The translations under genes were made by a program, and so were the position numbers. From a virus: a DNA stretch of 41,325 nucleotides. The notes under the pieces are model-generated. The model worked only from the letters and a program-made list of their open reading frames with translations. It did no database searches and had not been told where the DNA came from. The stretch covers positions 1-41,325 of IMG/VR virus record IMGVR_UViG_3300045988_032064. The stretch is one strand, 5' to 3'. Below, one piece after another: positions 34,955 through 35,582 of this stretch. The first letter of the stretch is position 1. Each line of letters starts with the position of its first letter.

Positions 34955-34986
34955 TAAAAGGGAAACCCTGCCATAGTGACAGGGTT
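34955..34986 (-). terminator. Terminator-like hairpin ending the - strand cassette
   Basis: aaccctg/cagggtt stem 7 nt past the stop of 34993..35190. On the - strand it is followed by tcccttttat. Confidence 0.45.
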
Positions 34987-34992
34987 ACCGTG

Positions 34993-35190
34993 CTATTCGG
35001 ATTTTGCTTTGATATACTTTCCAGACCGGATGCGCTTATCATCCGGCAATTGGGCATCGGCAGGGATGATCCATTGATTCCCGATTTTCTTTCCTGGCAG
35101 AGTTCCGGCAATCAGCATACGCCGGATTCTGGAAACATCCCGGCCCACCTTTTGGGCGTATTCGGTGACGGACAGATATTCATTTTCCAT
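34993..35190 (-). CDS. Excisionase/MerR-type HTH DNA-binding protein
   Basis: LSVTEYAQKVGRDVSRIRRMLIAGTLPGKKIGNQWIIP, the pattern of excisionase-family HTH proteins. Confidence 0.65.
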   Translation of the reverse strand: MENEYLSVTEYAQKVGRDVSRIRRMLIAGTLPGKKIGNQWIIPADAQLPDDKRIRSGKYIKAKSE

Positions 35191-35284
35191 CGTGTTTCTC
35201 CTTCCAGATGTGGTACGCAGCTACGCAGATTTTAATTACGGAGTATACCACAACGATAAGACCCACAGTACCAACAATACCCAT
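35180..35284 (-). CDS. 34-aa hydrophobic peptide
   Basis: SD aggagg 6 nt upstream. MGIVGTVGLIVVVYSVIKICVAAYHIWKEKHDGK. Its stop overlaps the start of the HTH gene. Confidence 0.45.
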   Translation of the reverse strand: MGIVGTVGLIVVVYSVIKICVAAYHIWKEKHDGK

Positions 35285-35305
35285 ATTTACCTCCTAATAA
35301 AACAA

Positions 35306-35334
35306 TTGACGGACAGACAACGGTTTGATATAAT
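35306..35334 (+). promoter_or_regulatory. Near-consensus promoter pointing toward terS
   Basis: TTGACG, 17-nt spacer, TATAAT, with TGa (extended -10). Confidence 0.65.
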
Positions 35335-35340
35335 GGGCAT

Positions 35341-35368
35341 ACCATACAGGGGTTTCCCCCTGTATGGT
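35341..35368. other. Perfect 12-bp hairpin
   Basis: accatacagggg-tttc-cccctgtatggt. Sits at the predicted 5' end of the + transcript and 9 nt past the stop of the 39-aa - strand ORF. Confidence 0.6.
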
Positions 35369-35376
35369 GGCTGGGT

Positions 35377-35496
35377 TTAGTCAATGATTTTACCGATTAC
35401 CATCAACACCAGCCCAACGAAGAAGCTCATTAGTCCATCAACTAAGGTTTGCCGCCAGTTGACGTGTCTGATGGGCTTCTTTTCGTACTTGCCCAT
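35377..35496 (-). CDS. 39-aa peptide with a C-terminal transmembrane segment
   Basis: SD gagggggtga. MGKYEKKPIRHVNWRQTLVDGLMSFFVGLVLMVIGKIID. Confidence 0.5.
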   Translation of the reverse strand: MGKYEKKPIRHVNWRQTLVDGLMSFFVGLVLMVIGKIID

Positions 35497-35526
35497 TGGA
35501 TTCACCCCCTCTCATTTGATATATTT

Positions 35527-35555
35527 ATTATAGCACGATATAGTGCGAATGTCAA
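35527..35555 (-). promoter_or_regulatory. Consensus promoter on the - strand
   Basis: The reverse complement reads TTGACA, 17-nt spacer, TATAAT, with TGc (extended -10). Confidence 0.65.
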
Positions 35556-35582
35556 CAAATATTTTAGAAAAGTGGTGAGATT

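Follow-up and report, generated by a model that had tools for sequence, protein, structure and literature searches.

A reverse-oriented peptide cassette beside terS of a temperate phage, read as a candidate antisense-controlled membrane-toxin module

The window analysed here is the whole of positions 1 to 41,325 (41,325 nt) of IMG/VR virus record IMGVR_UViG_3300045988_032064, a circularly permuted temperate phage whose tyrosine integrase and candidate Xre-type repressors are encoded at ~19.6-24 kb on the minus strand. In the leader of its late/packaging operon, between a RinA-like gene and terS, lies a block in reverse orientation which, judged from sequence comparison, is a real, self-contained accessory cassette (a moron): it has its own promoter and its own terminator, is set between core genes, and is present or absent among close relatives at the same site. 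The block encodes two small hydrophobic peptides, here called pepA and pepB, and a 65-aa helix-turn-helix (HTH) protein, and it contains a second promoter that faces the first. We tentatively read it, with confidence that falls somewhat short of even, as an autorepressed, antisense-RNA-controlled membrane-toxin moron of type I toxin-antitoxin (TA) or abortive-infection-like character. A broader proposal, which we hold more loosely still, is that phages of gut Clostridia carry a portable addiction/abortive-infection cassette in which type I-like antisense control and type II-like repressor control would act on a co-evolving membrane-peptide pair, and whose control head, the HTH gene with its operator, would be reusable before HEPN/MNT pairs, with distant relatives before type I restriction-modification (R-M) genes.

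Layout, family and insertion site of the cassette

All of the elements that a first-pass annotation of this DNA had listed, namely both promoters, the two peptide open reading frames (ORFs), a hairpin, an HTH ORF and a terminator, are present where it placed them, as seen on both strands of 34700..35900. On the minus strand, the sense promoter P(sense) (35527..35555; TTGACA-17-TGcTATAAT) matches the consensus at 12/12 positions with an extended -10, and its predicted start lies at ~35520. It precedes pepA (35377..35496, minus strand), which encodes 39 aa with a Lys-rich N-terminus and a C-terminal transmembrane helix behind the Shine-Dalgarno (SD) sequence GAGGGGGTGA; an alternative in-frame GTG start at 35505 would give 42 aa. 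The pepA stop is followed by a perfect 12-bp stem with a GAAA loop (35341..35368, minus strand). The antisense promoter P(anti) (35306..35334, plus strand; TTGACG-17-TGaTATAAT, 11/12 with an extended -10) has its predicted start at ~35341, the base of this hairpin. Further along the minus strand, pepB (35180..35284; SD AGGAGG) encodes 34 aa with an N-terminal transmembrane helix and a charged tail, and the HTH gene (34993..35190) encodes 65 aa of a winged helix with an HTH_17 / excisionase fold. The HTH ATG lies inside the last pepB codons, with an overlap of 11 nt, and HTH translation is predicted to be coupled to that of pepB. The predicted intrinsic terminator of the operon (34954..34986, minus strand) consists of a 10-bp stem (34986..34964) and a T-run; it is one-way, serving the minus strand only, as no T-run follows the stem on the plus strand. 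The predicted starts of P(sense) and P(anti) are ~180 nt apart on convergent, overlapping transcripts, in agreement with the overlap of about 180 nt that had been proposed.

The quality of these two promoters is unlikely to be a matter of chance. Promoter matches of at least 9/12 were not enriched locally, with 4 found and 4.6 expected. At 11/12 or better, the 41-kb window held 5 matches, compared with 0.4 expected from Markov simulations; those that also had an extended -10 numbered 3, compared with 0.03 expected, and two of these three are P(sense) and P(anti).

The cassette belongs to a family. Only 31 close clusters of the 65-aa HTH protein were found in a set of 5.8 billion proteins, and pattern scans for HTH relatives returned 98 from genomes (80 kept), 33 from viral contigs and 466 from metagenomes (80 kept). 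Most of the hosts named in the corresponding records belong to the Oscillospiraceae, Lachnospiraceae or other Clostridia. At HTH identities between 100% and 46%, the 450 nt upstream retain one order of parts: a sense promoter with a palindrome in its spacer, pepA, a GNRA-loop hairpin, an antisense promoter and pepB, followed by the overlapping HTH gene and a terminator. Across the family, pepA, of 30-50 aa, is basic at its N-terminus and has its transmembrane helix at the C-terminus; pepB, of 31-58 aa, has one or two transmembrane helices, its stop overlapping the HTH start or lying within a few nucleotides of it; and the hairpin is G+C-rich and unrelated in sequence from version to version. 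A strict two-peptide detector was passed by 55 loci, representing at least 15 versions by peptide and hairpin sequence; one of these, found in L085 and L244, accounts for ~40 of the 80 metagenome contigs kept and is very common in human-gut assemblies.

The position of P(sense) is occupied by a promoter of at least 10/12 with an extended -10 in every version, and in all versions examined P(anti) stands between pepA and pepB, immediately behind the hairpin, irrespective of the flanking genes. Because this layout recurs across versions, the head-on promoter pair is built into the cassette and is not a property of the terS junction. In three-gene versions the antisense promoter scores 9-12/12 and its -10 lies 0-12 nt, usually 6, beyond the hairpin, and the predicted antisense start therefore falls on the outermost base of the hairpin. 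Family searches identified the neighbours of the different versions as HNH endonuclease, terS and terL, a RinA-like regulator, a replication initiator, a major tail protein and a tail sheath protein. Two versions adjoin a tyrosine integrase, one of them (L092) with a CI-like repressor on its other side; most cassettes are far from any integrase. The cassette is mostly antiparallel to both neighbours, and P(anti) therefore points in the same direction as the surrounding phage genes.

Searches by DNA and by protein revealed no homologue of the cassette among GenBank phages (50,697 records), and no description of it was found in the papers searched, GenBank phages, Pfam, PHROGs, NCBIfam, PADLOC or Rfam. 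A degenerate DNA pattern for the promoter and operator, run over the viral collection, proved too loose to be used: an HTH gene lay downstream in 6 of 120 matches, and 4 of these 6 were already known.

The extent of the block was delimited by comparison with a sister phage, L317, retrieved with the RinA-like protein as query. BLAST of the window against L317 gave aligned blocks at 34258..34930 and 35570..37283, separated by 26 nt in L317, which places the inserted cassette at 34931..35569 (minus strand). In L317 the stop codon of the rinA-like gene is 52 nt from the GTG of terS, with nothing between. Since the rinA-terS junction of L317 is the same but for the missing block, late control does not depend on the cassette. 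A third phage, L318, holds a different insert at this spot, with a 122-aa plus-strand ORF and a duplicated rinA 3' end, so that the junction is an insertion hot spot and the ~640-bp block 34931..35569 is, on this comparison, a dispensable accessory unit within it. The first-pass annotation had stressed its place at the entry to the late operon; a functional switch there is not supported, given the empty site in L317, the other insert in L318 and the variable contexts of the family. Two viral contigs carry the same block, L001 at 96% identity and L002 at 76% identity over 34258..37267. L002 retains both promoters, and compensatory changes preserve its hairpin and terminator; its 34-aa ORF is rich in synonymous substitutions. 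In the L318 insert (3396..3902), the duplicated rinA 3' end bears the AAATGTGTATCA motif, and the insert also has a minus-strand terminator-like hairpin similar to the cassette terminator of the window.

The cassette is flanked by terS and terL on one side and by the RinA-like gene on the other. terS (35583..36062, plus strand) was assigned by Terminase_2 (E 4.8e-38) and phrog_51 (E 2.5e-44). The RinA-like gene (34524..34913, plus strand) encodes a 129-aa late transcription regulator of the RinA family, matching TIGR01636 phage_rinA with 28.1 bits (E 1.9e-6), just under the cutoff of 31.9, together with a weak match to the transcriptional regulator family phrog_36. Directly after its stop, at 34917..34949 (plus strand) and upstream of the cassette, the motif TGTGTATCA ... 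TAAAAT is found; TGTGTATCA has the same position in the window, L317 and L318 (where it is duplicated), with a -10-like hexamer 16-17 nt further on. This motif might be a RinA-dependent late promoter, in which case late transcripts would cross the whole cassette in antisense. A terminator-like hairpin inside the rinA-like ORF (34727..34755, minus strand; 11 bp, G+C-rich, with a T-run) was considered as a backstop for the cassette and rejected because it is conserved in the cassette-less L317; it is also kept in L318.

Peptides, transcripts and the HTH regulator

One transmembrane helix was predicted in each of pepA and pepB, with opposite topologies. Within the window's family, dN/dS estimated by the Nei-Gojobori method was 0.12-0.30 for pepA, 0.06-0.24 for pepB and 0.05-0.22 for the HTH gene. 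Since the ratio is low in all three, they are real coding genes under purifying selection, and the values of 0.06-0.30 confirm the coding status of the two tiny hydrophobic peptides (39 and 34 aa) that had been proposed from the ORFs. On 37 contigs pepA had been called as a 39-aa gene, without annotation. Compared with 34993..35496 of the window, L238 has an HTH gene that differs by one synonymous base and the pepA and pepB of another version (pepA dN 0.45), which indicates a likely recent recombination breakpoint between pepB and the HTH gene. This exchange implies that pepA and pepB travel as a matched pair that recombines away from the HTH gene. In the lineage of L084 (L084 and L239), the pepA ATG has become ACG in two independent contigs, which leaves only the GTG that abuts the SD. 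Leaderless two-peptide bacteriocins and quorum-sensing pre-peptides were both set aside on the peptide sequences, each peptide being essentially one transmembrane helix without a mature-peptide region.

The hairpin between pepA and P(anti) occurs at this position in all versions; its sequence differs, its stem is kept, and its sense-strand loops are mostly of the GNRA type (GAAA, GCGA, GAGA, GGCA). Within the window's family the 12-bp stem shows compensatory changes. The hairpin is without a proper U-tract on either strand, the sense RNA continuing as AUUAUA, the complement of the P(anti) -10. We propose that it may act as a leaky sense terminator or a 3' stabiliser, and that its mirror image would form the 5'-terminal stem-loop of the antisense RNA. 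Stem-loops at the 5' terminus protect RNAs from 5'-end-dependent decay. Compared with shuffled controls, both the predicted pepA transcript (~180 nt) and its antisense counterpart are much more stably folded (z = -4.8, -5.8). A consensus fold of six sequences keeps the terminal hairpin and two further stems, one inside the ORF (AAGCCCA/UGGGCUU) and one with compensatory changes; 11 of its 52 pairs carry double changes.

All sequence matches of the HTH protein are below cutoff: Pfam HTH_17 (25.4 bits, cutoff 27), TIGR01764 (23 bits) and Cox; a match to mad1 (E 0.0035) was weak. An AlphaFold (AF2) model with a pLDDT of 78.7 shows a beta-alpha-alpha-beta-beta winged helix and a disordered basic tail, and its top matches in the Protein Data Bank (PDB) are lambda Xis (TM 0.77), Pukovnik Xis, RdfS, P2 Cox and BldC. 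In the spacer of P(sense), a palindrome at 35534..35545 (minus-strand CACTATATCGTG, family consensus CACGATATCGTG) forms a putative HTH operator. Its CAC...GTG is kept in the spacer across versions, and the extended -10 explains only the GTG arm; no other CAC-N6-GTG site of this type occurs within the cassette or close to it, and a search for a second operator-like palindrome at P(anti) or elsewhere in the window found none. The spacer palindrome accompanies the HTH gene in three different gene contexts. We propose that the HTH protein represses its own promoter by binding between -35 and -10.

The same control head is found in front of other cargoes. A promoter with the palindrome (TTGACATTTACACG-N4-CGTG...) directly precedes HTH genes without peptides in L089, L290, L301, L302, L307 and L313. 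In L301/L314, L302 and L290, the HTH forms the N-terminal part of a longer protein. For L301 and L302, Pfam identified an MNT nucleotidyltransferase domain (NTP_transf_2) in this protein, with a HEPN protein following in both (HEPN E 3.7e-19). HTH_17 was found in L301 with 22.8 bits; L302 shares this architecture but gave no HTH_17 match. HEPN/MNT is a known TA type. Such HTH-headed HEPN/MNT pairs lie in bacterial contigs, at 5938..6941 in L301 and 5992..6917 in L302, and also in L290 and L314. More distant HTH homologues (41-48% identity) in non-phage DNA of Lachnospiraceae are the first gene before type I hsdR/hsdM genes and have their own conserved motif in the promoter spacer, TTGATTTTCGGCG...CGC-TATAAT; these homologues may act as controllers of R-M expression. 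The peptide-less loci linked to R-M genes include L015, L045, L057, L059 and many other Lachnospiraceae, at ~5001..9400.

A sibling two-gene cassette (L087, L288, L300, L304), with one pepA-like peptide and the HTH gene, has the same promoter and palindrome. In the predicted folds of L300 (5775..5978) and L304 (5772..5975), the peptide SD is locked in a hairpin (CACCUCC/GGAGGUG) and the 5' end of the mRNA pairs with a segment beyond the peptide gene (z = -4.7, -5.7). Folding back and locking the SD is the design of the hok and AapA1 toxin mRNAs. This arrangement in the sibling mRNAs supports the view that peptides of this class must stay untranslated. One sibling version adjoins a gene read as a putative holin.

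The excisionase fold proposed by the first-pass annotation is upheld by the top PDB match to lambda Xis; a role as the phage's excisionase is not, as the HTH gene is not co-inherited with the integrase. The integrase of the window has relatives with 81-83% identity on ~25 other viral contigs, none of which gave an HTH match; the L084 phage has the cassette and no match to this integrase, and integrase matches and HTH matches share only one contig in the viral collection. We therefore argue, from the palindrome in its own promoter, the shared control head, the R-M-linked homologues and the lack of co-inheritance with the integrase, that the HTH protein is probably a transcription regulator rather than an excisionase. 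For annotation, this means that an Xis-fold HTH gene beside terS should not be labelled an excisionase by default.

A candidate membrane-toxin module and its alternatives

If the cassette is a toxin module, it could work as follows. P(sense), a consensus promoter, would transcribe pepA, and the GNRA-loop hairpin, being without a proper U-tract, would pass only part of this transcription on to pepB and the coupled HTH gene. The HTH protein would bind the spacer palindrome of its own promoter and hold the operon at a low steady level. P(anti), which is predicted to be strong, would start at the base of the hairpin and yield an untranslated RNA with a 5' stem-loop, fully complementary to the pepA mRNA including its ribosome-binding site; this RNA would lower the translation of pepA or the stability of its mRNA, and head-on polymerases would interfere with one another. 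Failure of this control, through loss of the prophage or because another phage shuts off host transcription, would release synthesis of pepA, and perhaps of pepB with it, to the damage of the membrane.

Several observations weigh against this interpretation. Neither peptide gave a significant match in Pfam, NCBIfam, PADLOC or PHROGs or could be placed in a known toxin family, and an Rfam search of the cassette region at a permissive threshold returned chance-level matches only. In the window's version, sequestration of the pepA SD was not predicted in the fold. In 10 of 11 versions, no intrinsic terminator was found within 900 nt after P(anti). The antisense RNA thus departs from the classical, discrete antitoxin, and a discrete antisense small RNA is not supported; in the window the P(anti) transcript would read into terS with no terminator between. 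In many type I systems the antitoxin has the stronger promoter, whereas here the consensus match of P(sense) is no worse than that of P(anti). We know of no type I TA locus with a co-transcribed DNA-binding protein, and small membrane proteins made by prophages may just as well serve as harmless exclusion factors.

No stop-free stretch conserved in frame or position across versions was found on the antisense transcript, and every version has 78-nt windows with a C/G ratio of 1.6-2.9. An untranslated RNA with such C/G-biased windows could undergo Rho-dependent termination, and a roadblock at an occupied P(sense), ~190 nt downstream, is an optional alternative end.

Among described systems, the closest appears to be yonT-yoyJ/SR6 of SPbeta. 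That locus has two small toxin genes on one mRNA with a convergent antisense RNA gene between them, the toxin promoter being the stronger one and the antisense RNA long-lived, and relatives have mutations in the yoyJ start codon (PMC5848175). [quoted passage not shown] The cassette resembles it in having two small peptide genes on one mRNA with a strong promoter and in the loss of the pepA start in L084/L239, as in yoyJ; like this locus and bsrG/SR4, it is prophage-borne with a convergent antisense promoter just downstream of the first peptide gene. It differs in that its predicted antisense RNA covers the whole of pepA with its SD, misses pepB and is without a terminator. Neither yonT-yoyJ/SR6 nor bsrG/SR4 has a co-transcribed DNA-binding regulator, and neither is similar to the cassette in sequence.

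A second comparison is with the type I TA loci of Clostridioides difficile phages (CD0977.1-RCd11, CD0956.2-RCd10 and others), whose hydrophobic toxins of 34-53 aa carry a charged tail and are preceded, 7-8 nt from the ATG, by the SD AGGAGG, and for which a role in prophage maintenance has been shown (PMC7699646, PMC6563280). Shared with the cassette are Clostridia hosts, a prophage location, the size range of the peptides and a convergent overlapping antisense RNA. The C. difficile loci, however, have single-gene toxins with defined antitoxin RNAs of 125-150 nt and no HTH gene described in them; the HTH_17 excisionase CD0912 is a separate 109-aa protein elsewhere in that phage. Via Pfam, PHROGs, NCBIfam and PADLOC, we found no family shared by the cassette peptides and the C. 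difficile toxins, although no direct comparison was made. The convergent, type I TA-like geometry noted in the first-pass annotation holds across versions; a discrete antisense RNA and membership of a described family are not supported. Because of the co-transcribed DNA-binding protein, the undefined antisense end and the coverage of a whole ORF, we do not file the cassette under a described type I family.

Protein-controlled modules offer partial parallels as well. The same HTH domain, with its promoter and palindrome, heads HEPN/MNT pairs with an HTH-fused antitoxin in L290 and L301/L314. In TA systems of the omega-epsilon-zeta type, a dedicated small DNA-binding protein autoregulates the operon of a toxic pair, as is proposed for the cassette. 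The cargo in these two cases is an enzyme toxin with a protein antitoxin; in the cassette it is two membrane peptides, with an antisense promoter in addition. The immI region of P22 (Pant, arc, ant, sar) is likewise a self-contained unit among late genes, with a strong promoter that is autoregulated by a small repressor from its own operon and a small internal antisense promoter directed against it; there, sar is a terminated ~69-nt RNA directed against the ant ribosome-binding site, the cargo is an antirepressor and the repressors are of the ribbon-helix-helix type. Controller (C) proteins of R-M systems are small HTH proteins encoded at the front of a toxic module, and their promoters contain or adjoin a conserved sequence motif, but they are Xre-type and not Xis-fold, and the HTH gene is the last and not the first gene of the cassette.

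Of the other explanations, the one that fares best is that of a lysogenic-conversion or superinfection-exclusion moron, which we regard as unlikely, if worth keeping in view. Harmless membrane peptides, produced either by the prophage or in a burst as soon as the DNA has entered, would block injection by other phages or alter the envelope, with the HTH protein and the antisense promoter setting the dose. The moron anatomy and the presence/absence polymorphism among related phages would fit, as would the L092 version between integrase and CI-like repressor, a classical place for exclusion genes; the two peptides, with opposite predicted topologies, co-travel as if forming one small membrane complex, and neither matches a toxin family. 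However, control by autorepression, a leaky terminator, an antisense promoter and a structured mRNA seems too elaborate for a harmless protein. The same regulatory head also stands on TA cargo, with distant HTH homologues before R-M cargo, and the sibling cassette locks its peptide SD and folds back like a toxin mRNA.

Another membrane role, either holin/antiholin-like timing of lysis or a signalling peptide pair with the HTH protein as its dedicated regulator, seems improbable to us. pepA has sub-threshold matches of the holin type (phrog_785, E 0.017; Phage_holin_3_3, E 0.07) and one sibling version adjoins the putative holin mentioned above, but these matches reflect no more than transmembrane composition. 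Lysis genes are usually distant from the cassette and oriented the other way, and neither peptide has a cleavable signal or a cargo region past its hydrophobic segment.

We give an equally small chance to a transcriptional-interference gate or timer for the late operon, the second idea of the first-pass annotation, in which an HTH protein like Apl/Cox of 186/P2 would decide whether transcription reaches terS. The cassette does lie between the likely RinA-dependent promoter and terS, so that late transcripts would run against P(sense), P(anti) points into terS with no intervening terminator, and the HTH protein has weak similarity to P2 Cox in sequence and fold. Convergent promoters, overlapping transcripts and a small Xis-fold HTH protein able to regulate transcription are indeed common to 186/P2 and the cassette; in 186/P2, though, the two promoters drive life-cycle programmes and are core and invariant, whereas the cassette is portable and dispensable and has its palindrome at one promoter. 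The same rinA-terS junction exists without it in L317, and an identical architecture is found beside integrases, tail genes and a replication gene. Furthermore, no operator-like palindrome was found at P(anti), and an unrepressed P(anti) that fed the late operon in the lysogen would be harmful.

That the HTH protein is the phage's recombination directionality factor and the cassette an excision operon is very improbable: the Xis-type winged-helix fold (lambda Xis TM 0.77), the weak HTH_17, TIGR01764 and PHROG excisionase matches, the presence of a tyrosine integrase in the phage and the two versions near an integrase speak for it, but ~25 contigs with an 81-83% identical integrase are without an HTH match, L084 has the cassette without the integrase match, most cassettes are remote from any integrase, the same domain is fused to an MNT antitoxin and has distant homologues before R-M operons of non-phage DNA, an excisionase would hardly be driven by a consensus constitutive promoter, and the sole good palindrome in the window is in the cassette's own promoter. 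The late-gate and excisionase explanations are thus each weakened by a direct test, through the empty site and the lack of integrase co-inheritance, respectively.

Returning to the membrane-toxin reading, if the peptides are toxic, the family would represent a new kind of phage-borne TA/abortive-infection module in the dominant Firmicutes of the human gut, in which, to our knowledge, almost no type I-like systems are known outside C. difficile. It would combine autorepression, a leaky terminator, a convergent antisense promoter and translational coupling in a compact layered control, and would have a DNA-binding head in common with different toxic cargoes. At ~640 bp, the cassette is small enough for direct synthesis and testing.

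Other elements in the window

A 12/12 promoter with an extended -10 lies on the plus strand at 17636..17664, right after a plus-strand terminator, with the palindrome CCACCCAATGAGTGG in its spacer; it is followed by an SD and a 69-aa ORF (17695..17902). The segment 17581..17902, located between the tail/lysis end and the integrase, resembles a further moron-like unit. On the minus strand, an 11/12 promoter at 27478..27450 is followed after ~50 nt by a hairpin and T-run (CCGCCCAGGGGCGG CTTTTTAT), which makes 27380..27478 a candidate for a 55-60-nt small RNA, convergent with a 62-aa Xre-like plus-strand ORF that ends near 27389. A further 12/12 promoter on the plus strand (24059..24087) stands beside a divergent 118-aa Xre-type repressor candidate (23666..24022, minus strand) and is probably the early lytic promoter of the immunity region. 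In the lysogeny region, the minus strand at 22015..23559 encodes a 514-aa protein with a C-terminal T5orf172/MUG113 (GIY-YIG-like) domain.

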